This document shows positions 12,935-54,150 of a DNA stretch of 64,000 nt, one piece after another (position 1 is the stretch's first letter; each line of letters starts with the position of its first letter). The DNA comes from Neocallimastix sp. 'constans' (Eukaryota), in the NCBI GenBank assembly GCA_050613775.1, contig JBODTK010000135.1:186001-250000 (forward strand), given 5' to 3'. A program made the position numbers and the translations under genes. A model generated the notes under the pieces. That model did no database searches. It had not been told where the DNA came from and saw nothing but the letters and a program-made list of their open reading frames with translations.

Positions 12935-13290
12935 GCAGCAGAGATGATCAAGAAAGTGGGACTAGAGAAGCTATTGTCGATAGGTGAAATAATTGATAAG
13001 TATTATGGAGACTTAACACAGGCTATACGATTGCAAGATAGAACTAGTGTCTGATGCACTACTTTATAAAGGAGTTATTTATCAAAAGAGTCCTAGAGAA
13101 GAAAAAGCATCAAAAATATACATAGATGAAAATATGGCTAAGGGTTCATTAGAAGATCAGAAGAAGTTAGGGGAGTTACGACTATGCATGGATTAAAGAA
13201 AACTGAACCGGTGGACGAATCAGAATGCTTCTCCTATCCCAAGAATTAGTGCAGTTTCTGAAGCAATGAAAGGAGCAGTGGTTTTCTCCA
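12935..13290 (+). pseudogene. Highly decayed gypsy RT remnant abutting the Rep fragment
   Basis: PIPRISAVSEAMKGAVVFSK (~13233-13292) resembles the P-LP-I..L..LKGA.IFSK RT motif. Confidence 0.45.
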
Positions 13291-13833
13291 AGTACGGCCT
13301 CAATTCCTATTGAATTAAAACATTGGATCGAAGATTTTGAAAAGTATATTGAAAGGAAATTAAAAGGAGAGATAATTTCTAGATTTAAAGGTATTTTAAT
13401 CATTGGAAAAACAAGATCTGGAAAAACAGCTTTGATGACTACTTTAGGAAAATTTACATATATCCCAAATGTATGGAACATGGATTGCTTCGGTAGTGAA
13501 GATTGGATAAACATTTTTGATGATAATGATATTATCATTGAAAAATTTAGTGAATTTACTTGGTATAAAGGTTGGTTTGGATCACAAGAAGTAATTGGAG
13601 TAACCGATAAATATCGCCCAAAGGAAGAATTGAACAATGATCGTCCAATATGTTGGTTAACAAATATACCTTTCGAAGAACAATTCAAAGACAAATTAAC
13701 ACAAAAATATATAAGAGAAAATGTTACCATTATTGATTTGAAAAATGAAAATTTAATTGAAAAAAAAGATACTAGAACTATTGATGGGTTTTCCGGTTGG
13801 GTTGAATATAACCCTAAAGAATCTTTTTACTAT
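13270..13833 (+). pseudogene. rep: CRESS-DNA-virus-like Rep, SF3 helicase part (5' HUH domain missing, interrupted by LTR X)
   Basis: Open frame IPIELKHW...ILIIGKTRSGKT (Walker A, 13405-13428)...IFDD (Walker B)...YKGWFGSQ...TDKYRPK...PICWLTN (motif C), typical of gemini/genomovirus-type Reps. Confidence 0.85.
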
Positions 13834-14865
13834 TGTAACGAAATCTTCTGTAATAGCTATACTAAAACTAAAATTAATTAATATAACTATTATCTACAAT
13901 TTTAATATTATTTTTACATAATATTAAAATTGAGAAAATAAAATTAAAAAAAAAATAAAAATTATACTTAATTTTACAGAGTTTATTATAAGTAAATATA
14001 ACAAACAATAACCAAGCAACGGCAGAATAGTAGTTGAAAATATTCTTTAAAAAAAAAACCTTTTATGATTAATAACAGTTTTTTTTTGATATATAAATAA
14101 AAAAAAATTTATTTTATTTGTTATTATTTATTATATTTTCTTAAAATAATAACTCTTGATTTCTCAAAGAGAATTCAAGAGTCCTATTTATATTTTTTAA
14201 AAAATTAATCGGTTAAATAAATTTGTTTTCTAATCTTAACAAAAAATCTATTTAGGAAAAGATTAGAAGAAAAACCTAAATAGTTTTTCGATCAATATTC
14301 TAATCATATTGATCATCGTATAATTAAAGAAAACCTATTTGTTAGGAAAAACATTAATTACCGATTTTCTAATTAATTATAAAATATTAAATATTGATAG
14401 GATAGGAATTAATGAAAAAAAAGATTTTTTTTTTTTTTTTTTTTTTTTTTCATTTAAAAAATAAAGATTAAATAATATGATAGATTAGATACATTTATAG
14501 TTTATAATACATTATAAAATACATAATTCATTTTAATTAAAATAACTAATATTTTTATGGTAAAATATTAAATACAAATTTACATAATTTTTTGTAAAAA
14601 TTCTATTTAAATGAATAATAATAATAAGTAAATAAATTTTATATTATTTATATAAATGTATAAATTATAATATGTAAATAAATTTAGATCAATGTATGAA
14701 AATATAACTATTAAATAAATTTATAAGTTAAAATCAATGAATATATTAATTATTATTTAAATAAATATTTTTTTAAAAATAATTATTATTTTATAAATAA
14801 TTATAAATTATTAATTATTTTTCATTAATTATAAGAAATATTAATTATTCATTATTGAATAATTA

Positions 14866-17800
14866 TTACATTGCTCTTCTTTCTTCTTCTGTTTCTAATG
14901 GTTCTGATAATTCTGGATTTCTTTTTGTATATGGCTCAAGCTGAGAGATATGAAATACCGGATGGAGATGGAGGTTTTCCGGTAACTCCAAACGGTAGTT
15001 CATTCTTTGCCCTTTCTCAATGATTTTAAATGGACCGAGATATTGAGAAGCTAATTTTTTCGCGGGTTCGTTGGTAAAGTAGTATCTTCTTAACCATACT
15101 AAGTCATTAACATTGAAATTTGGGCCTTCAGCTTTTCCAACATCCGCATATTTTTTGTAGTCTTCTTTTGCCTTTATAAGGTGTTTCTTGAGAGATTCGA
15201 AATGTGAAGACCAATCCCTAGTTAAGCATGAAGCATTATCCTTTAAAAGAATAGGAGGTGAATCTATAAAACAATTGGGATGGAAGCCGTAGTTTGCATA
15301 AAAAGGCGACATACCAATGGAACTATGTAGAGAATTATTATAAGCAAACTCACATAAAGGTAGATAATAACACCAGTCACTTTGAGCAGTAGAACAATAA
15401 CAACGAAGATATTGTTCAATAACAGCATTCGCTCGCTCTACTTGACCATTAGATTGTTGGTGGTGAGCAGTAGCTAATCTGGGCTTTATCTGAAGGGCAT
15501 AACACAAGGAGGTCCAAAATTCCGAAGAAAACTGTGAGCCATGATCCGAAATAATGGTTTTAGGAAATCCATGAAATTTGAACACATTGAGAAGAAGGAG
15601 CTTTGCAGTTTGATCAGCAGAAGGAACATCAGAGCAAGGGACTAAATGGACCATTTTAGTTAAGTGGTCCGATACTACCATGATACAAGTACAATCTCTT
15701 GAAGTAGGGAGGTAAACAATATAATCGACACCTATAACTTCCCAGGGTTTTGTAGGAATAGGGAGTGGCTGTAACTTGCCATACGGTTTATGTCTTCTTA
15801 TCTTGTTTCTTCCACATACTTCGCATGAATGAACGTAATTAATAACATCCTTTTTCATATTAGGCCACCAGTAGTACCTTCTAAGTTTTTCGAGGGTCCT
15901 ATCTACCCCCTGATGGCCACTAGTTGGAGTATCATGAAAGGATTTTAGGAGTCTAGCCTTGAGTGATGCTGGCACAATTATTCTATTTTGGAAATGTAGG
16001 ATACCTTTAATGAGGCTGAATATGGAGCTTTTAACTTTACCAGATTTTTCTTGGATCTTTCTTATCGTATCTTGACAAAATTTATCAGACAACTGGGACT
16101 CTTTTAAGCTATTGATATTTCTGTCGATTGTACAGCAGAATACATCATCATTGATGATAGATGAGCCCTCTAAGGAGTTATTCTTCTTATAGTCCGGTCT
16201 TCTTGACAAGGAATCCGGTTTACCAGAACTAACTCCCGGTCTATAAGCAATTCTAAAGTCAAATTTAGATAAGAAGAGGCTCCAACGAATTTGCCTCTGA
16301 TTAAGATGTTGAGGTTTCTTCATATAAAGTAGGTTCCTATGGTCTGTAAGAATTTGAACTGGATATTTGGCACCTTCAAGATGATGCCTCCATACGTCAA
16401 ATGCTGTAATAATGGCTAGAAGTTCTTTGTCGTAAATTGTATAATTAACTTCAGCCTTATTCATAGAGCGAGAGTAAAATGCTACAGGATGTAATAAATT
16501 ATCCTTAGGGCTAACTTGGGAAAGAATGCAGCCAACAGCAAAATCACTGGCATCTGTTTCTACTACAAATTCTTTCTCTGGATCGGGAAAGATAAGTACT
16601 TCATTGTTGAGGAAAGCATTTTTAAGTTTATTAAATGCATTATTTGCTTCCTCGTTCCATAAGTAATCAGCATTCTTTTTTAAAAGTTTCCGCAAAGGTT
16701 CAATGATTTCAGCAAAGTTTTTTATAAATTTTCTGTAGTAATTCCCTAAACCAAGAAAACTTTGGAGTTCTTTGATGTTTTTGGGTATGGGCCATTCCAA
16801 AATTGATTTTAATTTATCCTTATCCATAGTGAGTCCATGTATAGAAACCGTAAAACCTAAGAATGAAGTTTCAAATACGTGAAATTCACATTTTTCTAAT
16901 TTCACGAATAAGCCATTTTTTATTAGTAGAGTAAGAACATGACGAACATGCTTAATGTGAGTATCAAAGTCAGGAGAAAAGATAATTATATCATCCAAAT
17001 ATGCCTGAACAAAGGATCCAGTGATTTCTGACAATGTATCTTGTATGAATCTTTGAAAAACTGAAGGAGCATTACGTAAGCCGAAAGGCATTACAAGATA
17101 CTCGAAATGACCTATTGGAGTACGGAAGGCTGTAAGATACTCATGTCCTTCCTTTATTCTGACAAGATTATACGCAGACCTTAAGTCAAGTCTGGTAAAA
17201 ATCTTTGATCCTTTAAATACTTCCATTAAATCGTTAATCCTTGGCAGTGGGTAACTATTACGGATTGTAATAGCATTCAGACGGCGATAATCCACGCATA
17301 ACCTGAGAGAACCATCGTGTTTTCTAACAAACAATATTGGAGCACCAGCTGGGGATTTTGATTTTCGAATGAAGCCTTTAGCTAAATTTTCTTCGATATA
17401 TTCTTTCAAGGCTTTCATTTCTACCGTAGTTAAAGGATATATTGGTCCAAAGAATAATTGTCCTCCAGGGATCAAGTCGATTGTTATGTCATAGCTCCGG
17501 TGGGGAGGTAATTTATCAGCTTCTTCTTTTTTAAAGACTTTCACTAGATCTGAATAGTATTTTTGAATGATTTCTTTAGTACTAAGTTTCTTATTATTGA
17601 GAATTTTATCTTTATTTCTAAGTTCCATATTATTGAGAATTTTATTTTTATTTCTAAGTTTCTTATTATTGAGAATTTTATTTTTATTTCTAAGTTTCTT
17701 ATTATTGAGAATTTTATTTTTATTTCTAAGTTTCTTATTATTGAGAATTTTATTTTTATTTTTAAGTTCATTTTTGTTATTACTTTTATCAGTTTTGACT

Positions 17801-19149
17801 TGTTCTTGACTTTCAACAATTACACAACATATATCCTCATCATATAGTTCATCTTCAGAAATAAATGAAGGTATAATTGAGTCATGGCCACATTGTGAGG
17901 ATTCTTCTAGCATAGGTGCTGTTATATTATTAGAACGGAATATAAATTTATTTCCTTTACAGGAATGACAATGTTGTCCACAGTTACTTTCCAAGAAATA
18001 GATTTTATTGGATTTAAAGTTGATATAGGGATTATGAATCGAGAGCCAATCCCTTCCTAAAATACCACCTATACCTTGAAGTTGTAGATTACCAACGTAG
18101 AATTCATAGGTTTCAATATGGTCCATTATTTTCAGTTTTAAAGGCTTCGTAGATTGTTTAATTACCATACTTTTACTATTGGGCAATTGGATACTAATAG
18201 GAGAAGAAAGGCCTGAGATTGGAATTTTATTAGCTGAAATAAAGTCCTTGCAAATAAAGCTTTTGGCAGAGCCTGAATCAATTAGTAAATTAATTTTGAA
18301 AGACTTTGAGTTGGTAGATATAACAAAGGTAGTTGTCATAGAATTGGAACTATTTGGTGTATAATTAGCAGAGAGTATTTCTTTTTTGAACTTGTTCTTC
18401 CTATGATGTAAATTTCTCGACTTAGTACTGCTTTTATTGAATTCATATTTCTTTCTATTAAATGACTTTGTTTTGTGGTTTCTAAAATGACAGGAATTGC
18501 GAATTTTGGTCTCCAAGTAGCATTTTTTGTCTATGTCAATAATAACATTTGTAGCTTCAAATAGTGTTTTTGGCTTCTTTATTTTATCATATTCTTCACG
18601 TACTTCATCCAGTAGACCTTTTCCAATTATGTCGATGAAAACTTCATCTGGCCATTTAAGCCTTGCTGCTAATCTTCGGAACTCTATCGTGAATTCAGCA
18701 ACCTTTCCAAGTTGTTCTTGCTTCAAATCCCATAACTGCTTCATCAGCATGTACTTCTGCTTCTTCTCATCACCCGAGTCAAAATTCTTGAGTAGTAACT
18801 TCTTAAATTTTTGGTAGCTCAGAGTTTTCAGTGTACCATCAACTAATAGAGAGAGACCCCATCTTCTAGGTAGACCATTTAATTTATTTATTACGTATGT
18901 ATTTTTGTTTTCATCGCTTTGAAATGAATTTGGATGATCGATGAAAAAACTCTCACTTTGTATTAAAACTTCTTGAATATTCGGCTTTATATTTGTTTCT
19001 CCTTCTTTGGTAAGAACTCCATTTGGGGAGAAGAATGTAGGAATAAAATCGGTTATTGCTGATATAAATTTCGAAGCATCGATATTATTGGGATTGATTA
19101 TTGGAATTTGAAAATTATTTTTTGTACTTGTTGCTTCTTCACTTTCCAT
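14866..19149 (-). CDS. Gag-Pol polyprotein of element B (single ORF, no chromodomain)
   Basis: 1427 aa: gag, LIDSGS, YLDD, ETDAS, HHCC, DDE and GPY/F motifs. Confidence 0.95.
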   Translation of the reverse strand: MESEEATSTKNNFQIPIINPNNIDASKFISAITDFIPTFFSPNGVLTKEGETNIKPNIQEVLIQSESFFIDHPNSFQSDENKNTYVINKLNGLPRRWGLSLLVDGTLKTLSYQKFKKLLLKNFDSGDEKKQKYMLMKQLWDLKQEQLGKVAEFTIEFRRLAARLKWPDEVFIDIIGKGLLDEVREEYDKIKKPKTLFEATNVIIDIDKKCYLETKIRNSCHFRNHKTKSFNRKKYEFNKSSTKSRNLHHRKNKFKKEILSANYTPNSSNSMTTTFVISTNSKSFKINLLIDSGSAKSFICKDFISANKIPISGLSSPISIQLPNSKSMVIKQSTKPLKLKIMDHIETYEFYVGNLQLQGIGGILGRDWLSIHNPYINFKSNKIYFLESNCGQHCHSCKGNKFIFRSNNITAPMLEESSQCGHDSIIPSFISEDELYDEDICCVIVESQEQVKTDKSNNKNELKNKNKILNNKKLRNKNKILNNKKLRNKNKILNNKKLRNKNKILNNMELRNKDKILNNKKLSTKEIIQKYYSDLVKVFKKEEADKLPPHRSYDITIDLIPGGQLFFGPIYPLTTVEMKALKEYIEENLAKGFIRKSKSPAGAPILFVRKHDGSLRLCVDYRRLNAITIRNSYPLPRINDLMEVFKGSKIFTRLDLRSAYNLVRIKEGHEYLTAFRTPIGHFEYLVMPFGLRNAPSVFQRFIQDTLSEITGSFVQAYLDDIIIFSPDFDTHIKHVRHVLTLLIKNGLFVKLEKCEFHVFETSFLGFTVSIHGLTMDKDKLKSILEWPIPKNIKELQSFLGLGNYYRKFIKNFAEIIEPLRKLLKKNADYLWNEEANNAFNKLKNAFLNNEVLIFPDPEKEFVVETDASDFAVGCILSQVSPKDNLLHPVAFYSRSMNKAEVNYTIYDKELLAIITAFDVWRHHLEGAKYPVQILTDHRNLLYMKKPQHLNQRQIRWSLFLSKFDFRIAYRPGVSSGKPDSLSRRPDYKKNNSLEGSSIINDDVFCCTIDRNINSLKESQLSDKFCQDTIRKIQEKSGKVKSSIFSLIKGILHFQNRIIVPASLKARLLKSFHDTPTSGHQGVDRTLEKLRRYYWWPNMKKDVINYVHSCEVCGRNKIRRHKPYGKLQPLPIPTKPWEVIGVDYIVYLPTSRDCTCIMVVSDHLTKMVHLVPCSDVPSADQTAKLLLLNVFKFHGFPKTIISDHGSQFSSEFWTSLCYALQIKPRLATAHHQQSNGQVERANAVIEQYLRCYCSTAQSDWCYYLPLCEFAYNNSLHSSIGMSPFYANYGFHPNCFIDSPPILLKDNASCLTRDWSSHFESLKKHLIKAKEDYKKYADVGKAEGPNFNVNDLVWLRRYYFTNEPAKKLASQYLGPFKIIEKGQRMNYRLELPENLHLHPVFHISQLEPYTKRNPELSEPLETEEERRAM
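17583..17770. repeat. 36-bp coding tandem repeat, about 5 copies, in the PR-RT linker
   Basis: Unit TAAGTTTCTTATTATTGAGAATTTTATTTTTATTTC encodes RNKNKILNNKKL. Confidence 0.95.
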
Positions 19150-19249
19150 ATTTAAAATTCTAATAATATAAATAGAGTATAATAGAGTAAAATAAAAAGA
19201 AAATAAAGATAAGTGTAGTATAAAAGTATTTTATTTATTTATTTATTTA

Positions 19250-19281
<32 letters not shown>

Positions 19282-19422
19282 TTTATTTTTTAATTATTTT
19301 TTTTTTTTTTCCACTAACTAAAAATATATTTATTTATTTAATATAATTTTCTTCACTAACTAAATATATATTTATTTATTTAATATAATTTTCTTCACTA
19401 ACTAAAATTATATTTATTTAAT

Positions 19423-19484
<62 letters not shown>

Positions 19485-21895
19485 AACTAAAATTATATTT
19501 AATAAAAAAATTTTTTTTTTTTTTTCACTAGAATAAATTTATTTATTTAATATATATCCCTTCCAATAATTAATACTATAAAATTAATCAATTTATTATT
19601 ATTTCTTCCATTTACTATTATATTAGATCTTCCAATCAATTATACTGATTTTAATTAAATTTTTTTTTTTTTTTTTTTTTTGATCTTATTATAATATATT
19701 ATACTAATACTATTTAATTATTAAATTAGAAGAGTTATTATTGTAATAGCTATACTAAAACTAAAATTAATTAATATAACTATTATCTACAATTTTAATA
19801 TTATTTTTACATAATATTAAAATTGAGAAAATAAAATTAAAAAAAAAATAAAAATTATACTTAATTTTACAGAGTTTATTATAAGTAAATATAACAAACA
19901 ATAACCAAGCAACGGCAGAATAGTAGTTGAAAATATTCTTTAAAAAAAAAACCTTTTATGATTAATAACAGTTTTTTTTTGATATATAAATAAAAAAAAT
20001 TTATTTTATTTGTTATTATTTATTATATTTTCTTAAAATAATAACTCTTGATTTCTCAAAGAGAATTCAAGAGTCCTATTTATATTTTTTAAAAAATTAA
20101 TCGGTTAAATAAATTTGTTTTCTAATCTTAACAAAAAATCTATTTAGGAAAAGATTAGAAGAAAAACCTAAATAGTTTTTCGATCAATATTCTAATCATA
20201 TTGATCATCGTATAATTAAAGAAAACCTATTTGTTAGGAAAAACATTAATTACCGATTTTCTAATTAATTATAAAATATTAAATATTGATAGGATAGGAA
20301 TTAATGAAAAAAAAGATTTTTTTTTTTTTTTTTTTTTTTGCATTTAAAAAATAAAGATTAAATAATATGATAGATTAGATACATTTATAGTTTATAATAC
20401 ATTATAAAATACATAATTCATTTTAATTAAAATAAATAATATTTTTATGGTAAAATATTAAATACAAATTTACATAATTTTTTGTAAAAATTCTATTTAA
20501 ATGAATAATAATAATAAGTAAATAAATTTTATATTATTTATATAAATGTATAAATTATAATATGTAAATAAATTTAGATCAATATATGAAAATATAACTA
20601 TTAAATAAATTTATAAGTTAAAATCAATGAATATATTAATTATTATTTAAATAAATATTTTTTTAAAAATAATTATTATTTTATAAATAATTATAAATTA
20701 TTAATTATTTTTCATTAATTATAAGAAATATTAATTATTCATTATTGAATAATTATGATTTCTTACATCTTCAGTTAGTAAAATTAGAACTTTGGTTCAA
20801 TGGTTAGTTACATTGACCATGACCAATACTTCATGGGTTCGTTATGGCTCGAGGAATTCAAAAAAAAAAAAAATTATATAATATTAAAACACAAAAAAAA
20901 ATTTTATTCTTTCACAATAATTTTTATTTATTTATTATATTTTTATTTTAATTTTTATTTTATTTTTATTATTATTTTTATTTATTTATTTTATTTTTAT
21001 TTTATTTTTATTATTATTTTTATTTATTTATTTTATTTTTATTTTATTTTTATTATTATTTTTATTTATTTTTATTTATTTTTTTTTTTATTTATTTATT
21101 TTTATTATTTCTATTTTTTTTTTTCTTTTTTTTCTCTCCCCCCTAAAAAGGGGTTCCAAGGTAGTCAATTTATATCTTTTTGAAGATATAAAAGTAGCAA
21201 AGCCTCTGGAAGTAGTTGAAGAGATGGAAAAACAATAGATTTTTAAATCTTATTGATTATTTCCTTATTGTAATAAATAGAAATTTTATTATTTCCTAAT
21301 ATTCAAATTATCCAAAATAAATCTATAATATAAAAGATGCATTATAGATAAGAATTAAACAAAAAAAAAGAGAAGCAGTATTACAATAAAATTGATTACT
21401 TTAACTTAATTTTGATACTAATTTAATATGTAATCTTATATATTAATTTGAATGACATAATAGAAAATAAAATACATTTATTAATATATGAAAAATCTTT
21501 TACAATTTTAAATACAGAAAATTTTATTTTATTTATTTCTTTCATTTCAATTATTTATTAATTCGAAAGACAGAAATATTGATAAAGTTATTTAAGTTGT
21601 TTATATACAGGAATTATTCCTTATTTAGAAAAATAATACTAAAAGTAATTAGTACTATGTTATTGCTAAACTCTCATAAATTTAATTTACCTTTATAAGG
21701 AATGAACATAAATTTAAATTAAATTTTATGTATAAACTTAAATTTTCAGATCAAATAATATAGTAAAATTATTAATGTAAAGAATACATAAATTTATTAA
21801 TATTTTAAAAATCACCTTGACTATATTAAAAGGTTTTTAATAAGAATCAATTTATTACTTCATTCTTTATCACGATGCCCCCGCTAAGACTCAAG

Positions 21896-24800
21896 CTATA
21901 TTGTAGCTGAGTTATATTTTACTATATTTTTGAGGTGTACATTCCGATTTAATAATATTCCTGAATTTGGATCAGCTAACGTAACTGTATTAAACTTTTT
22001 CTTGATTACTTTTAAAGGTCCATTAAAATAAGGTTCTAGTTTAGTTCTACTAAAGTTTCTAACTAGGACTAAATCTCCCTCCTTGATTTCCTTAGCCTGA
22101 TTCATACTTTGTTTTTCTTCTCGTCTAACAGCCCAATATTTATTTGCATTTTTCACATTTTCTGATGCTTCTATGGTCCATCTATAATGAGATATAAACT
22201 TTTCCAATAGAATTTCATCAGAAGATTTATTTATACCTTTAGTCGGTCTTGCAGCTATATCAAAAGGTTGTTGGTCTTCACGACCATAAACTAATTCAAA
22301 ACTAGAATGGTTAGTAGTACTATTTTTAACAGTTCTTAAAGCCCAGAGAGCAGAGGGTAATACCTCATCCCAATCTTTATTTTTCGTCCCAAGCAATCTA
22401 AGGAGTTTACCAATTTCTTTATTACGATTTTCCGTAAGTCCATTAGATTCGGGATGATATGTTGTAACAAATTTTATATATACATCATATAGATCTAAAA
22501 ATATTTTAGTCATATCTGATGTAAATTGGGCACCATTATCGGTGGTAATTATTTGGGGAACTCCATGACGAGAAAATACGTTAATAAGGAACTTAATTAC
22601 GTCTTTAGAAGTGATATTTTCAGTCGGTTCTGCTTCTACCCACTTAGTGAAATAATCAACAGCTACTATTATATATTGATTATTACTTCTAGTTTTAACC
22701 AGTGGACCGATAATGTCCAAACCAAGATGTACAAAAGGTCCTTCCACTTTAGTAGGTAGATTTTCTGTAGGCTCTGGATAAGGTTGTGGTCGATTTAATT
22801 GACATTTTTCACACTTACTGACAACACGTTTAACATCATTCACCATGTCGTTCCAATAATAACTCTTACGTAAACGTTGATAAGTCTTATAATAACCATC
22901 GTGTCCAATATTATGAGCCTCTAATATTAATTTTATTCTTTCATTAAGATCGGTTACTAATTTTCTATAATTGTTACCATCAATAAAGTAGTCAATACCA
23001 TCAATAGTGGTGAATTTTTCATTGATAAAATCATGTATTACTTTGGATAATAAGGCTTCATTTTCATCATTCGTAATATCATGGTTAATTATTTTCGTAG
23101 CTAAAACTACATTTTCTTTATTATTTTTCATTCGGGATAGGGCATCAGCAAGCACATTCTTTTTACCGGTTTCATATCTAATGTCTACACCAAGCATACT
23201 AGCTGTCAAACACCATCTAGTTTGCCTTGCATTATGTGGTTCCTTATTTTTGAACAACCCTAGTAACGGTTTATGGTCCGTATATACAATAGTTGGTATT
23301 GGATTTCCATCTATATACGGTTTTAATTTAGTTATACAATAATATAGGGCAGCACCTTCTAGGTCCGTTATACCATAATGCTTTTCTGCTCTGGTCAAAC
23401 TTCTACTAATAAAGTGAATAGGGTGTTCTTTTCCAGTTTCATTATCTTTTTGTAATAACACACCTCCTATTCCATCATAAGAAGCATCGGTACGTATAAT
23501 AAATTCTTTATCAAACTGAGGGAAACTTAATATGGGTGCATTTATTAGTTTTTCTTTCAGTACTTCAAACGATTTTTGGTGTTCACTAGTCCAAACATAC
23601 TTCACACCTTTCCTTAATAATTTACACAAACACGCAGTAATTTGTGAATATTTATCGATGAAATTTCTATAGTATCCAACAGCTCCTAAAAATGAACGTA
23701 ATTCATGGATGTCCTGAGGGGGTTTCCAATCTCTGATAACCTCGATTTTACTATCAAGAGGTTTTAAGCCTTTAGTGGTTAATCTATGCCCCAAAACATT
23801 CACTTCTGTTTTCATGAAGTGACACTTTTCAATATTAAGTTTTAATCTATTTTCTTTGAGTATGGATAAAACTTGTTGAATATGTTGGAGGTGTTCTTCA
23901 ACTGTTTTAGAGTATATAAGTATATCATCGATAAAATTATAAACACACTTTCCTATTAAAGGAAATAGGATTCTATTCATTTCTCTTTGAAAGGTTGCAG
24001 GAGCGTTGGTTAAACCAAATGGCATAACTTTAAATTGGTAGTTACCAAACTTAGTGGTGAAAGTTGTTATACCAATACTTTCTTCCTCCATTAAAATTTG
24101 GTGATATCCAGAGTATAAGTCAATGGTAGTGAAGATAGTTGCACCATTGAGACTATCAAAAATTTCATCAATGTATGGTATAGAATAAGAATCCTTTATA
24201 GTAGAATCATTAACCTTCCTATAATCTACACACATACGCCATTTCCCATTAGGCTTTGGTACTAGAACAATAGGCGAAGACCATTCAGAATTTGAAGGCT
24301 CAATTAACTTTTTATTAATTAACTTAGTTAATTCTTCCTTTAAAATATCTGTCTTTAATTTTGTTAGCCGATAAGCTCTTTGTTTTATAGGTTTGGTACC
24401 AGCTTTTAGATTTATTTTGTGTGGTGAAAGCAATGATGGTGTTAATTCCTCAGACGACGTAGCAACAATTTCTATATTGTCCTCTAATAGGTGTATTATA
24501 TCAGTTCTATATTTTTCATTTAAAGTATTCATAAATATTGTATTATGTATACATTCCATAGGTGGTAATCCTTCTAATTTCTTTAATTCCCCACCAGCAT
24601 ATTTTTCCTTACTATTATCCTCAAGTAATTTGTTAACACTACAAATATATTTTTCGTCAATTGCAGAATTATTTATTGGTGTAATAGAACTGATAGTACC
24701 ATCCATGTTATATTTACATAAGCAATTATTTAAGGGATTAATAAATAATCTATTATCAACTATAGTTTTTAAATTAATTAGCATGTCATAAAATGGTTCC

Positions 24801-27049: not shown

Positions 27050-27107
27050 ATTTCTTGAGTAGAAATTATACAGTAATATAGGTAAAATATTCAAAATAAA
27101 AATAATA

Positions 27108-27146
<39 letters not shown>

Positions 27147-27275
27147 TTGTGTGTGTGAGTATGTTATAGATATATATAATATAGTATTAGAATTTATAAG
27201 TTTACAAACACTTCAGAGATTAGAAAAAAAAAAATAAGTAAGTTTACAAACACTTCAGAGATAAAAAAAAAAATA

Positions 27276-39837: not shown

Positions 39838-39901
<64 letters not shown>

Positions 39902-40406
39902 CTATCTAAAATATTACTAATAAGAATTTATTTAATTGGCTAAAATTTTTATTACAATCTGTTAAAATATTCAAATAAAAATAAAAATACTATTCTAATA
40001 TAAAGGTTTTTAATAAAATAAAATATTTTTCAATATAAAATAAAACATTTCGATATAAAATTTTATAATAAAAGTTAAAATATAATATATAAATTTTTAA
40101 TTATCAATATATAAAAATATTATTAATACAAATTTTCATTATTAATATAAAAATAAAAAAATAAGATTTATTATTAATATTGTTAATATAAGTTTTAAAT
40201 ATATAAAAATATTACTATTAATATAAGATTTAATATAAAAATTATAAAGTTTAATATAATTTTTGATCTAATTTTTAATCTTTGAATTTAAAAATTTATT
40301 AAAGTACAAAAATAATAATGTACACATAATGTATTAGAAATAAATCGTAGATTTAATTAAGAATGCATTATTTAGTACATTCTTATTAAGATGCCCCGAC
40401 GAAGAC

Positions 40407-44417: not shown

Positions 44418-45310
44418 GACTTTTTGGAATATATTTCTTTTTTATTTTTTTCCATAATCTTATTTAATTGAGGGCAATAGTATGAGTAATGACCTTCTTC
44501 CTTACAGAAGAAGCAAGTTTTAACAGATAAATTTCTCATTTTCTGGGTTGATTCTTCTATAATATCTTGAGGTTTCAGTTTATTATTTGTTTGACTTGTT
44601 TGGAAAGTTTCGTTTCTTCTTTTAGGATAAAGTCTTGAAGTAGTACTGTTTTGATTATTTTGATTATGCTGGGAATTATTAACATTATAGGTATTAATAT
44701 TATTGTTCCTTACAGAAAGTCTATCTACTTTCTCGGCAATTTTGAAAGCTTTCTCCATACTTATATCATCTTTAAGGGATAATTTCTTCCAGGCTTCATA
44801 ATTATTTTGAATAGAGTCAATATAATCTAGTACACCAATGCGCTTTCTTCTCTTTTTATCAAGTTTAGTGTACAAAGTTCTATATCTTACATTAAAGTCT
44901 TTAATCTTTTCGTTTCTTTTAATTCGCATTGCACGAAGTTCTTTAAGAAGTAAATTTTGGTCTTCTTTAATACCGTAAAAATTTTCAAGACTTGAAATAA
45001 TTTTTTCAAGAGAAGGAAATTTATCATCATCAACATTTTCTTCTTCATCATCTTCTTCTTCATCTGATGAATCATCACTTTCATCATCACTATCTTCTCC
45101 CAAATCTTCAATAACGCGTTGTACTTCACCAGAGCTGGTAAGTAAACAAGCATTAAATATTGTTTCCGGATCTGTGATACCTTGTATCTTGATCCAAAGT
45201 TTTAATTCAGTAGCCCAGGACTTTATATCTAAATTGTCCTTGCTAAGCTTCACTATGTCTCGTAATTCTTTCTTTAATTCTTTAAAACTTAAAGTACTTT
45301 TAGTAGACAT
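44405..45310 (-). CDS. gag: Gag of element E
   Basis: 301 aa with CFFCKEEGHYSYYC knuckle. Confidence 0.92.
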   Translation of the reverse strand: MSTKSTLSFKELKKELRDIVKLSKDNLDIKSWATELKLWIKIQGITDPETIFNACLLTSSGEVQRVIEDLGEDSDDESDDSSDEEEDDEEENVDDDKFPSLEKIISSLENFYGIKEDQNLLLKELRAMRIKRNEKIKDFNVRYRTLYTKLDKKRRKRIGVLDYIDSIQNNYEAWKKLSLKDDISMEKAFKIAEKVDRLSVRNNNINTYNVNNSQHNQNNQNSTTSRLYPKRRNETFQTSQTNNKLKPQDIIEESTQKMRNLSVKTCFFCKEEGHYSYYCPQLNKIMEKNKKEIYSKKSLNF

Positions 45311-47015
45311 TTCGTTTTTAGTTAATAATTTTTTTATTGTAAATTAACGAGGTTATTAAATACGAATAAATTTGAAAGTCCAACTTTAAAAATATAATTT
45401 AACAAGTAATTTAATATCGAATCAAATTTTAAAACAATATATCTTAGTAATTTTTGAAAATAATAATTTTATTTGCTTTCTTTAGTAAGTATAAGCTCGA
45501 AATCCTTATCGACAACTTAGTAGAAATTATAAAGCACGAGGTTCTTTTCGACTACTTTTTTAAGAATAATTTTAAGTTCGAAATCTTTATCGACAACTTA
45601 ATAGAATAATTTTAAGTTCGAAATCTTTATCGACAACTTAATAGAATATTTTTCAAGCTCGAAATCTTTATCGACCACTTGAATTTTGTAATTTAGTATA
45701 TTTGTAGTAATAAATTTAGAAGCAAAGTTTTATTTATTATTTTCACCTTTCAAAAATTTTTCTTTTTAAACGATAAATATTGTATTGTTATAGCTAATAA
45801 AATTATTAATTAATTATAATTATTAAATACAAAAAAATAATCTTTATTGTCGTACAATCTGATAGTACACACTGTCTGACGTGCAGCTTACCTAATGGTG
45901 TCATGCCACGCGTGTGCCACGATTACTATATTCAATATAAAATATAGCAGTTCAGAGCCCACTAGCCCAATTACTATGTAGGATAAACTTAATCCGATAA
46001 TCTATGTACGGAATAAAAAAATTTTAAAAGTATTCAATAATATTTTTATTAACTAATAAAAATTAACTAAAAACACAATATTTTCAAAGTAAATTAAGAT
46101 TCTATTACAGGAATTATATAACAAATAAAGTACCAGTAATAAAAAAAAATAAAAAAAATTTAAATGGCGAAGTTAGCCAAAGTCTGATACTTTATATAAT
46201 AAAGTGCCTTATAACTAGCACAAAGAAAAGTAAAAAAAAATTATATAAAAAAAACAATCTTACGCCTTCGGTGACGTAAGCTCCTTATTCGCCAGTGCTT
46301 GGAAAGTACCCGCACCTTCGTGTGTTGAAACGTTGAAGGTTGAACTATTATTACCGGGTCGGTAACCAAATACCTTCGTCTACTTTCCAATTAATCTCCA
46401 AATTAACTACTATTCAATAACCTACTATGAATAGAGTTAATTTGTTGCTATCTGAGAATACACTGTGTATGAGCTCTATCCGCTCCTTGTTATAATTTTA
46501 CAAAATTTGTTTTTTTAGAATCTTAATTTTACTTATTTAAAAAAAAAAAATTTTTTTTTTTTATATATATATATCAAACAAGCGCCATAGGTTAATCAAA
46601 GGATTAACGACTTACTTGTTTATCAATATAAAATAAAAAAAAAATTAAAAAAAAAATCTATGTTATTTACTATTATTTCTATTTAATTCCCCGATATCGC
46701 CACCATATAAATGTTAAGGTTTTAGAGAATTAAATAAAAATAAAGTAAGAAACACAAATTTTATTTATTTATTTATTATTTTTATTTATAAATTTATTTG
46801 ATTTTATTTGATGATATTTAAAAATTAGTAGCAAAATTTACAACTATTTATACTTTTTTTTTCAAGGCATAAAAGTTGTTCTTGCCACTAAATTACATTT
46901 TATTATTATTTTTCTTTTTATATATAAAAACTATTAAATTTAAATTGATTTTTATAATCAATTATATAAAATTTAATTATAACAATATAAATAAAATACA
47001 TTTATAATATTAATA

Positions 47016-47079
<64 letters not shown>

Positions 47080-47582
47080 CTATCTAAAATATTACTAATA
47101 AGAATTTATTTAATTGGCTAAAATTTTTATTACAATCTGTTAAAATATTCAAATAAAAATAAAAATACTATTCTAATATAAAGGTTTTTAATAAAATAAA
47201 ATATTTTTCAATATAAAATAAAACATTTCGATATAAAATTTTATAATAAAAGTTAAAATATAATATATAAATTTTTAATTATCAATATATAAAAATATTA
47301 TTAATACAAATTTTCATTATTAATATAAAAATAAAAAAATAAGATTTATTATTAATATTGTTAATATAAGTTTTAAATATATAAAAATATTACTATTAAT
47401 ATAAGATTTAATATAAAAATTATAAAGTTTAATATAATTTTTGATCTAATTTTTAATCTTTGAATTTAAAAATTTATTAAAGTACAAAAATAATAATGTA
47501 CACATAATGTATTAGAAATAAATCGTAGATTTAATTAAGAATGCATTATTTAGTACATTCTTATTAATCAGTTAGTAAAATT

Positions 47583-47660
47583 AGAACTTTGGTTCAATGG
47601 TTAGTTACATTGACCATGACCAATACTTCATGGGTTCGACTCACACCTCAACCCATTTTG
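47583..47660 (+). promoter_or_regulatory. tRNA-type Pol III internal promoter in LTR X U3
   Basis: A box TGGTTCAATGG (47590-47600), B box GGTTCGACTC (47633-47642), 32-nt spacing, T4 downstream; copies at 8288-8340 (-) and a partial copy at 20793-20841. Confidence 0.75.
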
Positions 47661-48203
47661 CATAAATAATTATTTTATTAATTATTTTATTAATTATTAA
47701 TAATATCTTCTTGAATATTCTTTCTGTATAAAATTATAGAAAGTTAAAGATTCTTTCGGTTCGTAATTCAACCGAAATGAATTTAGAAATTCTTATTATA
47801 TAAATTATTTTATTCTTTTTTGATAAGATTCATTTTCATCAATTAAAATCTATATTCTAGAAACTTTACATTATTAATTATTACAAACATATTTCTAAAT
47901 ATTTCTTTAAAATTATTTTTACATGTTAAAACTGTTTTTCCGTTAAAAGTATAAATAGTGCGAACTTCACGAATGAAAATATTTTTCTTCGTGCTTTTAT
48001 TAATAATAATTAACGTATAAGTAATTCGAAATATTACCTTGTTGATTAATATTAATAATTATTTTAAATTTTATAATTAATAAAAAATATTTCTAATAAA
48101 ACGAATTATTTATACAGATAGTGTAAACCTATTGAGTTTTCTCCTTTCTGTGTTTCTATACCACGTCCCGCCGTTACAATAGAAGCACCTCCGTTACAAC
48201 TAT

Positions 48204-48638
48204 AAACATTTTATTGAAAATAATAACAGTGAAATTCCAACAACACCTGAAAATATTTTAATTCCTGAACCACCAAGTACTCCTAATATTAGAAAAATCC
48301 AAGAAAATATTATTGACCTTACTCAATCTGATAGTGATGATATTATTGAAGAAGAGAATGAAGAAGAAAAGGAAGAACTATTAATACGTTCCTGTTTTAG
48401 TGAAGATGAACTCGAAAGTTTATTCGAAGAATGGTATGAAAATCATAATTATGAAGATCAATATGATCCAACTATTATTGAATGGTGTGATAAATATGAT
48501 ACTTTTGCTAAATATTTAAAATCAATTTTACAAAATAGATTAAAATGTAAAAACTTAGATGCATTATTAAAAAATAGAAATAGTTTAGTAAATAAATTAT
48601 TAAAAGGAAAAGAACCTGATAATGGTTCAACTTTATAA
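48204..48638 (+). pseudogene. rep: C-terminal part of the interrupted Rep
   Basis: After removing LTR X and one TSD the frame continues KESFYY|KHFIENN... for 144 codons to TAA. Confidence 0.8.
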
Positions 48639-49070: not shown

Positions 49071-49600
49071 TCCAGGGGTCTTCTTTTTTAATATTTACAT
49101 ACTATTACTTCGCAATTCCACCTTTCTATTTTTCTATTTTTACCACTATTTTAACCACGTTTAAGTGATCCTAAATTGATAAACAACCTAATAAATATCC
49201 TATAAATCCATAGATATAACAACACATAACTTTTGATATAAACATCATAAATAATAATATTTACAACAACCATAATTTTTTTAAAACTTGAATTTCTCTG
49301 GCAAAACAAAACATTTTTTAAAAACAAATTACATCAATAAATTCTACTCATTTTAAGCTTTCTAACGATACCAAAATTATTACCTATTAACATAATAAAC
49401 ATACCAAAAATATTAAAATTAAAAAAATTTACTATCAAAAAGTGACCTTTTACCTATCAAAAGTGGACTTTCATCAACAAAAGTGGACTTTTAAATTTTA
49501 CAAATCTAACCTCATTTTCTAACCTACAAATCTAAATGAACACTTCATTATAATTTAAATAAATCACACCAAAATAAATGAATAACACAAATTAAATAAA
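49071..49600 (+). repeat. Left arm of ~530-bp inverted repeat flanking the capsid module
   Basis: Near-perfect reverse complement of 53459-53987. Confidence 0.95.
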
Positions 49601-49762: not shown

Positions 49763-50629
49763 TTAAATATACTTATTATAACGTAAACCTCTAAAAGTGA
49801 TATCAATACTGAACTCAATATCAAAAGTAGTAGGATACAACTTATTAGTACCAATAACTTTATGTACTAATTCTCCTCTTTCATAAGTAAAGAAAGATTG
49901 TGTACTAACTGGGTTTGGTGAACGAACTGCAAGTAATAAAGTAGGTTTAAAAGCTAAAGATGGTGAACAAAGAATATTATTAGGTAAATCTTTATTTTCA
50001 ATAGCATCTCCTAAATCATAATAATATGGTTCCCTATTCAATCTTTCATATTGACCTTTTAAATCTCTTGTTGACACATATTGACTTTTTTCTTGACTTG
50101 TACTTGGATAAAGCATACGTGTAATACCTTCTGAAGATCCTGGTCCTAAATGTTTAGTAATAGCACTAGAATAATTTTCAATACTACCTGCAATAATACA
50201 ATATCTATCACCTCTCATATCCTTAATAAATTGACTTTCATCAAGTCCGGATCTATCCAATGTTGTAATAACCATTAAAGATCTTGGTAAACTATATCCT
50301 TTTTCTGGATTAGAATCTCTTGAAGTAGCCCAAACAACTGGTGTAATTTTAACTTTAATGGCATTAATTTTGAATTGATCATATATTTCAGAATAATTTT
50401 GATAATATTCAGTATTTAACAATACATCATAAATATTGACTGCTAAAGTACCACTATCAATGAATTTATTTTCATAAATTCCTTCATTATTATCTGAAAC
50501 ATCTAACGTAACTTCGTTATATGTTTGGCCACAACTAAATGATTTATTACAATTAATTATTACGTTAGTACTATCTCTTTGCTGATCAGCAAATTTACGA
50601 TTATAATATATTCTACGTCTAAATGACAT
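49763..50629 (-). CDS. cap: CRESS-virus-like capsid protein paralog 2
   Basis: Basic N-terminus MSFRRRIYYNRK; YSEIYDQFKINAIKVKITP; C-terminal DITFRGLR; colinear with 51539-52945. Confidence 0.8.
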   Translation of the reverse strand: MSFRRRIYYNRKFADQQRDSTNVIINCNKSFSCGQTYNEVTLDVSDNNEGIYENKFIDSGTLAVNIYDVLLNTEYYQNYSEIYDQFKINAIKVKITPVVWATSRDSNPEKGYSLPRSLMVITTLDRSGLDESQFIKDMRGDRYCIIAGSIENYSSAITKHLGPGSSEGITRMLYPSTSQEKSQYVSTRDLKGQYERLNREPYYYDLGDAIENKDLPNNILCSPSLAFKPTLLLAVRSPNPVSTQSFFTYERGELVHKVIGTNKLYPTTFDIEFSIDITFRGLRYNKYI

Positions 50630-50779: not shown

Positions 50780-51404
50780 TTAAGTAAGTGAACAAGCAAA
50801 TAAACTTTGATAGAGATACAAAGATGATGCATTAGCAAATGTCTGTGTATAGATATCCATTTGTAATGAAACAAATTTAGTTAATTCATTAATACCATTA
50901 CAGAAATAAAGATATTTATCATTAGAATAATCTAACGTAGTATTATAATAAATAGGAACATCCGAAACCGCATAATTTTGAGCACTAGTTGAACTATTAT
51001 ATACTGCCGTAATTTGGAAAGATTCAGTACCTCTTTTAATTAATAATAAAACTTTTCCTGCTGGAATAGATATATTTCCAGATGTAGTGAATTTAATGAA
51101 ATTAGTTGTATTAATAGCTACTTTTTTCGTTGTTCCACTTGTTTTAACAACATATGCAATACTAGGTTGTGGTATTTTTATACTTGAATAACCAATTGTA
51201 TTATTTGGGGGTGTTAAAGTCTTACCATAATCTGTTTGACTTGTGCCTGGATACATTGCCAATGTAGGATATACAGAAACACTTGCCATAGCATCATACC
51301 CCGTACTTGGATTAATAGTAGCATAACCATTATTAAGAGTCGTGATTGTAAAATCTCTTACATCTTCGATATTTAATTGCGGTCCACTAGATTCTTTATT
51401 AGAA
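50780..51404 (-). CDS. Beta-rich viral ORF; probable spliced C-terminal extension of capsid 1
   Basis: Frame is open upstream of ATG 51289 to an acceptor TTTATTATTTATAG (G at 51405); in phase with donor GTAAGT at 51542. Confidence 0.6.
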
Positions 51405-51538: not shown

Positions 51539-52945
51539 TTACATTACTTCGGATTTACGAAGTCCTCTAAATGTAACTCCTATATCAAATTCTAAATTAA
51601 ATTTAACTGGTTTAATACAATTATAAACATCAACTGTATTATTATTAATTGCATCAGTAATATCTTTGGATCCTAAAACACCGATTAATAAAGTTGGTTT
51701 AAATGGAATAGTTGGGTCTGAAAATACACTAGTTAAACTTGAAGCATAATCTTTATTATTAACTGGTTGTTTAAGATAATATAAGAAATTCTTATCTTTA
51801 TAACTATCCGTTAATGAACTAGTACTATAATATACTGATTTTTCTTGTTGACTACTTGGGTATAAATATCTAATACAATTAAATGTAGCTCCTGCAACTA
51901 ATTGTTTTGTTTGTGCACTAGAATATGAAGTAATTTCATCACCAATATTAACAAAATATCCTAAATCTCTATCTACTGGATCACTCATTTTAATATACTG
52001 ATTACTATCTGGATTAGGAATAAAGTATCCATTACAATTATCAATTTGTTGCGCATCTAAACCACTACGATCCCAAGCAGTTACAACTGTTAATGCTTGT
52101 GGGAATATATATCTATTTCTATATTTCTGAGTTTCTTTATACTGTCCATCATAAACTGGATCAGTGATTTCTTCATTAACTGCACCAGAACTAGTATTTA
52201 TAGTATATTTAAACATTAACTTTCCAATAGCTGTTGAACCAGTAATAGTATCAGGGTATACTCCAGATTCATCTGCTAACGATGCTTGAGTTGTCTGTGA
52301 TACACTAGTAGCAACATAATTTAATGAACCATCTTGATTAGTAGGATCTATAAATTGTCCATCAATAGTTGCTAAATATAATTGTTTATTAGCAGTAAAT
52401 GTAACTGGACTTGGTGGTTTTCTAATAAATGCTACTTGACCTAAATCATCTTGAATTTGAGTAATATATTCTGGATTATATTTATATATTATATCATTTG
52501 GTGCAGGAACGATTGTTCTAATTGATGATATTTTAGCTTCATCTGGATTATTAACAGTACTACGAGCTTGATCATAAGTTTGCCATTGTGTTGGTGTGAT
52601 CTTTACCTTAACACTAGTAACTCTAAATTGGTCATACATATTAGCATAAGATTTATAAAAACTACTACGTTTTAACATTTCATAAATATTAACTGCAGTA
52701 ACACCAAGAGGAACAAAACTAGGAGTACCATTATTATCATAATATGCTGCATCAACACCTGCATAACAACTGTGCATCAGATTAATAGTAACATTTGAAA
52801 TATCATTTTGTTGATTAGCTGCTCTTAAATTTCCTCTAGCTCTTTTAACAACAGTACCAATATTACCTCTACCTGTCCTAGATCTTTTAAATCTATAACC
52901 AGTTGAATAACTTCTTCTACCGTACGTTCTATATCTACCACTCAT
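51539..52945 (-). CDS. cap: CRESS-virus-like capsid protein paralog 1
   Basis: Arg-rich N-arm MSGRYRTYGRRSYSTGYRFKRSR; YANMYDQFRVTSVKVKITP; C-terminal GVTFRGLR. Confidence 0.85.
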   Translation of the reverse strand: MSGRYRTYGRRSYSTGYRFKRSRTGRGNIGTVVKRARGNLRAANQQNDISNVTINLMHSCYAGVDAAYYDNNGTPSFVPLGVTAVNIYEMLKRSSFYKSYANMYDQFRVTSVKVKITPTQWQTYDQARSTVNNPDEAKISSIRTIVPAPNDIIYKYNPEYITQIQDDLGQVAFIRKPPSPVTFTANKQLYLATIDGQFIDPTNQDGSLNYVATSVSQTTQASLADESGVYPDTITGSTAIGKLMFKYTINTSSGAVNEEITDPVYDGQYKETQKYRNRYIFPQALTVVTAWDRSGLDAQQIDNCNGYFIPNPDSNQYIKMSDPVDRDLGYFVNIGDEITSYSSAQTKQLVAGATFNCIRYLYPSSQQEKSVYYSTSSLTDSYKDKNFLYYLKQPVNNKDYASSLTSVFSDPTIPFKPTLLIGVLGSKDITDAINNNTVDVYNCIKPVKFNLEFDIGVTFRGLRKSEVM

Positions 52946-53052: not shown

Positions 53053-53406
53053 TTATTTATTGTTATATAATACATTAGGATCGTAACGTTCTTTAATAAA
53101 TTTTAAAGGTACTAGTTCCATATATTCATCAGTATAACATCTACGCTTATAATCAAGAGTATATAACTTATTATTTAATTCTTTAAGTAAGTCCAATCTT
53201 TTAGCATTACCAGCCAAATAATTTTGTATTTTATCATTAGTAACAGTTATTTCGTTAGATACTGTATTAATAAAGCTCCTAATAGATTCAGATTCCTGGT
53301 TTAAATCTCTAATACAATCTGAAAGTAATCTCAACTTTGAATACACAGAAGCTTGTTGAAAATTAGCTGTAAGTTCAATCTCACTATTATTATTATCTTT
53401 AGTCAT
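53053..53406 (-). CDS. Small hypothetical helical protein of the viral module
   Basis: 117-aa ORF inside the inverted repeats, co-oriented with the capsids, with the same upstream AAAAGTATAAA motif. Confidence 0.6.
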   Translation of the reverse strand: MTKDNNNSEIELTANFQQASVYSKLRLLSDCIRDLNQESESIRSFINTVSNEITVTNDKIQNYLAGNAKRLDLLKELNNKLYTLDYKRRCYTDEYMELVPLKFIKERYDPNVLYNNK

Positions 53407-53458
53407 TTTAATCTAAATTTTTAATTTAAGAAATTTATTGGGTTTTTATACTTTTCGA

Positions 53459-53987
53459 TTTATTTAATTTGTGTTATTCATTTATTTTGGTGTGATTTAT
53501 TTAAATTATAATGAAGTGTTCATTTAGATTTGTAGGTTAGAAAATGAGGTTAGATTTGTAAAATTTAAAAGTCCACTTTTGTTGATGAAAGTCCACTTTT
53601 GATAGGTAAAAGGTCACTTTTGATAGTAAATTTTTTTATTTTAATTATTTTTGGTATGTTTATTATGTTAATAGGTAATAATTTTGGTATCGTTAGAAAG
53701 CTTAAAATGAGTAGAATTTATTGATGTAATTTGTTTTTAAAAAATGTTTTGTTTTGCCAGAGAAATTCAAGTTTTAAAAAAATTATGGTTGTTGTAAATA
53801 TTATTATTTATGATGTTTATATCAAAAGTTATGTGTTGTTATATCTATGGATTTATAGGATATTTATTAGGTTGTTTATCAATTTAGGATCACTTAAACG
53901 TGGTTAAAATAGTGGTAAAAATAGAAAAATAGAAAGGTGGAATTGCGAAGTAATAGTATGTAAATATTAAAAAAGAACTCTCCTGGA
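53459..53987 (-). repeat. Right arm of the ~530-bp inverted repeat
   Basis: Reverse complement of 49071-49600. Confidence 0.95.
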
Positions 53988-54029
53988 GTTTTGTCATTGC
54001 TAATGTCGCAAATAATGTCAATATGTAAG

Positions 54030-54150
54030 CACTTAAACGTGGTTATATATATATATAAATTTATAATATAGTTAATTATGATCACTTAAACGTGGTTATA
54101 TATATATATAAATTTATAATATAGTTAATTATGATCACTTAAACGTGGTT
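54030..54150. repeat. 53-bp tandem repeat with CACTTAAACGTGGTTA core
   Basis: Core at 54030, 54083 and 54136; also inside the inverted repeat at 53891. Confidence 0.9.

Follow-up and report, generated by a model that had tools for sequence, protein, structure and literature searches.

The 64,000-nt stretch of Neocallimastix sp. 'constans' DNA analysed here (the window, to whose positions all coordinates refer) very probably carries an integrated, defective virus genome with Rep and capsid genes, which likely belongs to an unclassified lineage of large circular single-stranded DNA (ssDNA) viruses that likely infect anaerobic gut fungi, and which was later split within Rep by Ty3/gypsy retrotransposons. 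From left to right, the viral insert consists of the helicase half of Rep, an acidic Rep tail, an inverted repeat, capsid 1, a spike-like exon, capsid 2, an open reading frame (ORF) termed orf4, the second arm of the inverted repeat, a TATA box and a hairpin. In all, 7,006 nt are present, in agreement with an earlier note on this DNA that had put the unit above 6 kb even without the HUH endonuclease domain. The same note had suggested an undescribed ssDNA virus lineage, and this reading is supported by a separate Rep clade and by the linkage of Rep and capsid on gut contigs. The inverted repeat, the hairpin and a splice site at the end of capsid 2 are additions to that note.

The two Rep pieces were once a single gene. 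The pentanucleotide ACTAT occurs on either side of a 34,365-bp insert, whose ends, TGTAACGAAATCTTC at 13834 and ...CCGTTACA at 48198, are both termini of a single long terminal repeat (LTR) family, E. The family was delimited from a solo copy (7732-8375), which is flanked by a separate target-site duplication (TSD), TTTAC, and is 99.2% identical to 47568-48198. The probability of a chance match to ACTAT at a fixed place is about 0.0025, or about 0.0008 once the reading frame is added: the Rep frame to the left of 13833 resumes at 48204 and stays open over 144 codons, against 18 and 3 in the two remaining frames. Hence, the TSD, the LTR E termini and the continuing frame bear out the proposal that 13833 and 48204 were once adjacent. 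The 34-kb nest said to separate them is equally evident, as it holds four Ty3/gypsy elements with paired LTRs that are 99.1-100% identical. The LTR-tail junction is bridged by a contig in all three DNA runs, one of which is possibly the source of the window, and no uninterrupted Rep allele was seen among the loose ends listed for reads covering 47900-50700. The earlier limits of the element (13270..54150) shift at both ends: it continues to ~54680 on the right, and on the left Rep homology starts near 13303. The ORF start at 13270 is not viral, since its first 11 codons lie within a decayed gypsy reverse transcriptase (RT).

Comparison of the helicase piece with 1.84 billion representative proteins by phmmer returned 243 at E<=0.001, 44 of them at <=1e-10, and the top full-length relatives (~470-670 aa) align with it as far as the break point. 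In an alignment of 32 family Reps, rolling-circle replication (RCR) motifs I-III, both Walker motifs, A and B, along with motif C are all conserved, and the HUH residues T14, H58, H60 and Y118 are kept throughout. The alignment also has a post-helicase motif, TIGGF..W..YDPK.TWYYKN, and the window Rep carries the family motif as TIDGF..W.EYNPKESFYY. Between RCR motifs II and III, family Reps contain FD...HPNI, often with a long insertion; this stretch is a candidate geminivirus Rep sequence (GRS) motif, of the R-x-F-D...HPNI type. The family Rep profile matches geminivirus Rep 1l2m (E 1.7e-4). For the window copy itself, 1266 read-through frames gave no match to the HUH endonuclease (best 7.8 bits, E 0.15), and because this half is missing the copy likely cannot replicate alone. 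A full-length family member that includes the HUH half is a 489-aa protein of N. lanati. The helicase piece alone yielded nothing significant against Pfam and PDB sequences, and a word-index search for longer homologues gave 0/603.

A tail of 42-191 aa (median 78, D+E median 0.20) follows the post-helicase motif in 32 of the 36 family proteins that have the motif. The 144-aa tail of the window Rep is as long and acidic (D+E 0.23) as first described, but it is not unusual, as had been thought; it is typical of the family. Its opening residues, Y|KHFI, are compatible with the family's YKNI.

A quick IQ-TREE analysis was made of 58 helicase rows (two of 60 were dropped, having no Walker A match), with 16 unnamed gemini-like Reps as the outgroup. 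All but one of the 41 family rows, the window piece included, form a single clade (SH-aLRT 99) separate from the gemini-like Reps, and the window piece is sister to an N. californiae protein and two unnamed ones (support 93). By both phmmer and tree, the helicase thus groups with HUH-superfamily 3 (SF3) Reps; a grouping with non-viral ATPases, which the earlier note had named as grounds against its reading, did not occur. Of its label "gemini/genomovirus-type SF3 helicase", the SF3 assignment and the kinship to HUH-SF3 Reps stand, while gemini/genomovirus-type Reps are only the nearest outgroup of what is, in this tree, a clade in its own right.

The capsid module consists of four minus-strand ORFs, two of which are capsid paralogues with 33-40% identity within aligned blocks and positions in different subclades. 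The best match of capsid 1 (55%) is from Piromyces sp. E2. A structural model of capsid 1 from a 20-row alignment (predicted local distance difference test score, pLDDT, 85) has circovirus capsids as its top PDB matches (E 2e-6) and 'Cressdnaviricota sp.' capsids as its top BFVD matches (E 2e-19), and the modelled fold is the single jelly roll expected of Cressdnaviricota. Pfam Circo_capsid matches a window capsid at E 1.7e-6, below the cut-off. The predicted fold is closer to the capsids of circoviruses and of unclassified circular Rep-encoding ssDNA (CRESS) viruses than to a gemini/genomovirus type. In one RNA run, contigs lie over capsid 1 at a depth of 5-6, where DNA carry-over is possible.

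Rep and capsid of this family also occur together in gut metagenomes. A scan of GTDB with the Rep alignment gave four loci among 53 candidates, on AT-rich contigs in two 'Bacilli' metagenome-assembled genomes (MAGs), one titled dairy-cattle duodenum; the assignment to 'Bacilli' probably reflects misbinning. Both contigs longer than 7 kb hold a family capsid (HMM E 1e-58 and 4e-59), and the two short ones hold Rep only. The first of the long contigs, L013, comes from ruminant gut and measures 7,761 nt with a 141-nt terminal direct repeat, which gives a 7,620-nt circle; it was the only one of six contigs with such a repeat. The second, which carries loci L014 and L023, is a 12,442-nt ruminant-gut contig that has no terminal repeat and is not closed. 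Each has one family Rep and one family capsid in the same direction, with one spike-like ORF on L013 and four on L014/L023. The earlier note had also allowed that Rep and the capsid module might never be found linked elsewhere; they are linked on both of these contigs, one of them circular. Furthermore, P0190, the sister of L013 in the tree, heads a 44-member cluster, and for 7 of the 15 members listed, the longest contig measures 7.57-7.69 kb. Of the free forms that had been suggested as something to look for in gut viromes, the circular L013, among GTDB MAG contigs, is a candidate. In IMG/VR, three protein scans found no relative, and neither Rep nor capsid is present at any of the 120 loci returned by a 17-mer origin scan. 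When GTDB was scanned with the capsid alignment, the outcome was 0/33, though capsid-bearing contigs exist there, and GenBank phages gave no match. Contigs of 7.35-7.4 kb with an identical capsid 2 were considered as free genomes and rejected; by their coordinates, they are probably the same host locus cut at flanking LTRs.

Three further observations concern these relatives. P0020 (MEE3418902.1) and L011-L014 are filed under Methanosphaera sp. and 'Bacilli' MAGs, again probably because AT-rich viral contigs were misbinned. At L013:2173-2583 and L014:10815-11135, the end of Rep is overlapped by a conserved coiled-coil ORF, which is fused in frame to Rep in P0054, P0188, P0192 and L012; window orf4 scores 10.4 bits against this ORF, compared with 10.1 for the best of 200 shuffles, and an Atlas search with orf4 gave no lead. 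At L009:84-2410, a family capsid gene adjoins genes of eukaryotic appearance, one for a membrane protein whose end is SH3-like and one for a Thr-rich protein of secreted type; this is possibly another insertion or a chimeric assembly.

As for the host, the capsid 2 cluster has members named from three Neocallimastix sources, N. californiae, N. lanati and N. sp. 'constans'. Reps assigned to the family occur under the names of N. californiae, N. lanati, Anaeromyces robustus and Piromyces finnis, and Piromyces sp. E2 has a family capsid; three of the fungal-genome Reps fall in three different subclades. Judged from these sequences, the lineage likely infects anaerobic gut fungi.

The right end of the insert carries an origin-type hairpin with the apex TATAACATTAA, of which this is the sole copy in the 64-kb window. 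Its folding z is -5.0, and the 11-mer together with a stem >=10 bp occurred in 2 of 5000 shuffles. All four Rep-locus relatives have a TATA box, a long hairpin 37-40 nt further on with the invariant apex TATAACATTAATATTAT and the nonanucleotide TAATATTAT, and the Rep ATG 46-72 nt past the apex; their stems differ in sequence and retain pairing. With a profile made from these four relatives only, the best-scoring place in the window was 54595-54681, at E 6e-4 and 16.1 bits, against 10.9 for the runner-up. This profile scores sequence only, since RNAalifold found no consensus pairs in the four origins, and the stems were folded singly. In the window, an ATG 56 nt beyond the apex opens just 17 codons. 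A minus-strand 12-mer at 54292 that resembles an origin was discarded (71/3000 shuffles, weak stem).

The hairpin at the right end points right on the Rep strand, and the helicase begins the insert at the left; this order fits a circle opened in the first half of Rep. A circular genome is seen in the relative L013. The circle would have been opened between origin and helicase, with loss of a joining piece of ~750 nt that would encode the HUH nuclease; by six relatives, the missing part is 744-795 nt. In the free virus, Rep would nick the TAATATTAT hairpin just upstream of its own gene to start rolling-circle replication in the nucleus. The same evidence bears on whether the locus is instead a composite of at least two integrations, namely a Rep fragment plus one or two capsids of other members or segments. 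Such an origin would account for two capsids of different subclades where relatives have one capsid gene per contig, and for a repeat arm standing between Rep and the capsids. We consider it unlikely: a single opened circle predicts what is seen, namely origin and Rep promoter at the far right and on one strand with Rep. Moreover, the pieces follow one another within 430 nt, their summed length suits the family, and a BFVD relative is labelled 'Capsid protein 1'.

The arms of the inverted repeat around the capsid module are identical at 518/518 aligned positions, with 3 single-base gaps. In all three DNA runs they collapse to one contig at about twice the flanking depth (98 versus 52-57; 21 versus 9-11; 10 versus 6-7), where depth is not equal to copy number; the orientation of the module cannot be read from short reads. 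The right arm runs up to orf4, ending 53 nt before its start, and so likely holds the promoter of the capsid module. The repeat is most likely a recent rearrangement at or near integration, i.e. an inverted duplication, perhaps with inversion of the capsid module. This is favoured because the relatives are co-directional and have no such repeat, and because a neighbouring 53-bp repeat is built from two motifs found near the junctions. Of the earlier description of a convergent four-ORF capsid module, the four ORFs are plain, and the convergence may be secondary, since Rep and capsid are co-directional in both linked relatives.

It is also conceivable, if improbable, that the repeats are native and form an invertible capsid cassette between 520-nt arms, with two isomers, or an ssDNA panhandle. 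The identity of the arms and their single contig in all DNA runs would fit this, as would a present-plus-missing length of ~7.75 kb, near that of the 7.6-kb relatives, and one accessory ORF opposite to Rep in both L013 and L014. Yet a young duplication also yields identical arms, neither L013 nor L023 has such a repeat, and the patchwork of the 53-bp repeat looks like a product of template switching. It is far less probable that the module is a separate element with terminal inverted repeats, either a DNA transposon or a linear ssDNA virus segment. Four co-directional ORFs do lie between long inverted repeats, and linear cressdnaviricots are on record (Oomyviridae; PMC13499601). At the outer repeat ends, though, there is no TSD (GGGTC left, CTCTC right) and no significant terminal hairpin (z -0.45 and -1.33), no transposase domain is present, and the depth pattern is that of one copy. 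A linear genome of the Oomyviridae type was likewise rejected, as the family origin and Rep lie outside the repeats and L013 is circular. For the repeat, an inverted duplication remains our preferred explanation.

The capsid 2 stop codon lies inside a splice-donor motif, GTAAGT, and removal of a predicted 138-nt GT-AG intron would join the next ORF in frame; NCBI 675-aa gene models contain an identical junction between capsid 2 and the exon. A donor on the stop codon with an in-frame acceptor is found at 5 of 14 capsid ends (window capsid 2, L006, L007, L013 and L014), and GTAAGT on a stop with an acceptor was found in none of the non-capsid ORFs, among 39 ORFs of 14 loci or 32 window ORFs. 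In L002, L003 and L022, a long extension is already fused in frame to the capsid. A short stretch that includes GYDA is common to the window exon and to ORFs located downstream in 3 of 14 other loci (E 1e-4 to 8e-4), and a single-sequence fold of the exon has a pLDDT of 36. From position and fusion, we infer that the exon product is spike-like. An unspliced capsid mRNA would give a plain jelly-roll protein, and use of the donor on the stop codon would give a capsid-spike fusion.

Variations on this arrangement were seen in relatives. At L023 (G002:C45) 4515-11023, one capsid gene is followed by four spike-like ORFs with a common VQPRLED...GYDGLGTV repeat, two of which begin directly after intron-like stretches ending TATAG, suggesting alternative exons. 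At L005:1427-1449, L009:3235-3359 and L010:812-936, capsids end in AAC TAG and are overlapped by a +1-frame spike-like ORF, possibly a second way to a capsid-spike fusion.

Several observations weigh against the interpretation of the locus as one virus genome of a fungal lineage. L013 and L014 belong to another subclade than the window (Rep 38-39% and capsid 26-27% identity), have a single capsid gene each, are co-directional and contain no 520-bp repeat; their subclade has no fungal-genome member in the tree, so that its host is putative. No free genome of the window's own subclade was seen, and Rep is missing from all 10 capsid loci of JGI metagenomes, which measure 1.2-4.2 kb. The trees come from quick searches on rows with no classified reference Reps, and the Pfam cut-off for Gemini_AL1 is reached by only 2 of 28 members of the Rep family. 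Compared with other tails, that of the window Rep gives nothing significant in sequence (the best phmmer value, E 0.024, is for an outgroup protein), and the window loop diverges after 11 apex bases and is without the nonanucleotide TAATATTAT. The single-stranded state, the virions and the splicing are predictions. Of the features of Cressdnaviricota, the lineage has the SF3 helicase, the HUH endonuclease, a predicted single jelly-roll capsid and a circular genome, and the window copy lacks the HUH part.

Among known systems, Genomoviridae and Geminiviridae (Geplafuvirales), including SsHADV-1, are similar in having gemini-like Reps with HUH motifs, a candidate GRS-like stretch and Walker A/B/C, and genomoviruses also share a fungal host. 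According to PMC5399927, the hairpin nonanucleotide of SsHADV-1 is TAATATTAT, that of the family relatives, and its genome is 2,166 nt, against 7.6 to >12 kb for the family. Family Reps differ in length (~470-670 aa), in their conserved post-helicase motif and acidic tail, and in forming a separate clade (in a tree that holds no classified references); the family further differs in its circovirus-like predicted capsid fold, its spike-like exons and an origin on the Rep strand directly upstream of Rep. At 7.0 kb for the window copy and at 7,620 and 12,442 nt for its relatives, and with several ORFs, it departs from the genomovirus plan of ~2 kb with Rep and one capsid.

Two endogenous systems were compared by description. 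BdDV-1 of Batrachochytrium dendrobatidis (10.1101/2023.03.16.532857) is similar as an integrated Rep and Cap in a zoosporic fungus, with an adjoining retroelement gene and partial rearrangement, but has a 2.2-kb unit (4.4-kb locus), no canonical stem-loop and one capsid. The endogenous CRESS genomes of Entamoeba and Giardia (Naryaviridae, Nenyaviridae, Vilyaviridae; PMC7493932) are likewise integrations of Rep and Cap, through which viruses of gut metagenomes could be given a eukaryote of the gut as host; host group and genome plan are different.

Crucivirus and bacilladnavirus capsids are tombusvirus-like and nodavirus-like, respectively, and thus of a different type from those described here. 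Both groups resemble the family in their large circular Rep-encoding genomes, and cruciviruses also in the splicing predicted for two of their capsid genes; PMC7468197 (2020) gives 2,474-7,947 nt for cruciviruses and up to 6,000 nt for bacilladnaviruses, a range in which L013 stands at the top and above which the 12,442-nt L023 lies. The best structural matches to the capsid 1 model are two 'Cressdnaviricota sp.' capsids, A0A7G8LJ22 with 594 aa and A0A6M4B900 with 771 aa, the latter labelled 'Capsid protein 1', at E 2e-19 and 2e-17 and 25-26% identity; both are long, as a fused spike would give, and have no host or family stated.

The lineage is hence not wholly new, as related capsids have been deposited as 'Cressdnaviricota sp.', and endogenous CRESS genomes are a known kind; UniRef already labels the Anaeromyces member as a CRESS Rep domain protein. 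We found no description of CRESS or other DNA viruses of anaerobic gut fungi in the literature, where tables of endogenous viral elements (EVEs) in supplements may list these fungi, and the parts seen of PMC9615429, PMC13499601 and the BdDV-1 preprint do not mention Neocallimast-.

Taken together, this near-complete defective EVE ties to anaerobic gut fungi a group of large cressdnaviruses that is likely new and of family rank. More tentatively, and at somewhat less than an even chance, we propose a family-level ssDNA lineage of 7.6 to >12 kb, beyond any published cressdnavirus size that we found, with a jelly-roll shell and alternatively spliced capsid-spike fusions, some members having two capsid paralogues and possibly an invertible cassette. 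In ruminants, anaerobic gut fungi open up plant fibre; they also serve in biomass work. The locus gives 7.6-kb circles and larger herbivore-gut contigs, some of which now sit in MAGs of bacteria or archaea, a fungal host that can be cultured, so that infection, particle size and effect on the host are directly testable. If true, a genome >12 kb would widen the reported size range of cressdnaviruses and raise the question of how a circovirus-like capsid packages such a length.

Table 1. Viral and retrotransposon features of the window.
Feature	Position	Strand	Basis or remark
Decayed Ty3/gypsy RT fragment, left flank, non-viral; left edge approximate	12980..13302	+	Translation with stops LRLCMD*RKLN...PIPRI...GAVVFSK; motif presumed to be RT
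Rep SF3 helicase half, HUH half absent	13303..13833	+	Walker A GKTRSGKT, Walker B IFDD, motif C WLTN
TSD ACTAT, left copy	13829..13833		Sequence
Retrotransposon nest bounded by LTR family E	13834..48198	-	LTR comparison, TSDs
LTR family E pieces	13834-13848, ~20768-20841, 47568-48198		
Gypsy A	13849-20767		TSD TCTTC, within E LTR
Gypsy B	20841 to ~30.5 kb		
Gypsy C	31483-38286		
Gypsy D	~39533-47567		
TSD ACTAT, right copy	48199..48203		Sequence
Rep C-terminal acidic, Pro-rich tail	48204..48638	+	144 aa, D+E 0.23, IIDLT motif
Inverted repeat, left arm, 520 bp	49081..49600	+	Self-comparison
Capsid 1 of 288 aa, single jelly roll predicted; sister to Piromyces sp. E2 protein	49763..50629	-	Homology, model
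Spike-like exon, ~207 aa, predicted spliced onto capsid 2	50780..51404	-	Gene models, motif
Predicted 138-nt GT-AG intron, donor GTAAGT over capsid 2 stop codon	51405..51542	-	Sequence, NCBI 675-aa gene models
Capsid 2, 468 aa, Arg-rich N-terminus, ~155-aa insertion; sister to L007 capsid	51539..52945	-	Homology
orf4, 117 aa, helical, likely coiled-coil, no known family	53053..53406	-	Prediction
Inverted repeat, right arm	53459..53977	-	Self-comparison; ends 53 nt before orf4 start
53-bp tandem repeat	54026..54153		Motif from inside inverted repeat (CACTTAAACGTGG) plus motif present at 49606
TATA box TATAAATAGA of family Rep promoter	54598..54607	+	Relatives' promoters
Origin-type hairpin, perfect 13-bp stem, loop opening with family apex TATAACATTAA	54628..54678	+	Folding, profile

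Some minor features of the retrotransposons may be added. Gypsy A, gypsy D and a second copy of D each lie ~13-15 nt from the LTR end of another element (E, E and F, at 13848/13849, 47567/47568 and 61289), hinting that gypsy elements may prefer LTR termini as insertion sites. The second copy of D is near-identical and inverted (44855-47567 versus 61289-64000) and starts within element F (55341-61289), in its right LTR; F is a chromodomain gypsy with a 970-aa ORF that has no RT or RNase H match. A probable solo LTR (TG...CA, TSD TATAT) lies at 29674-~30440 inside the right LTR of element B, and a fragment resembling it seems to come after the viral origin, from ~54760. Finally, to the left of the viral element, the stretches 2219-5324 and 8825-11877 hold a gypsy pol, in two overlapping frames, and a copia-type pol interrupted by stops.

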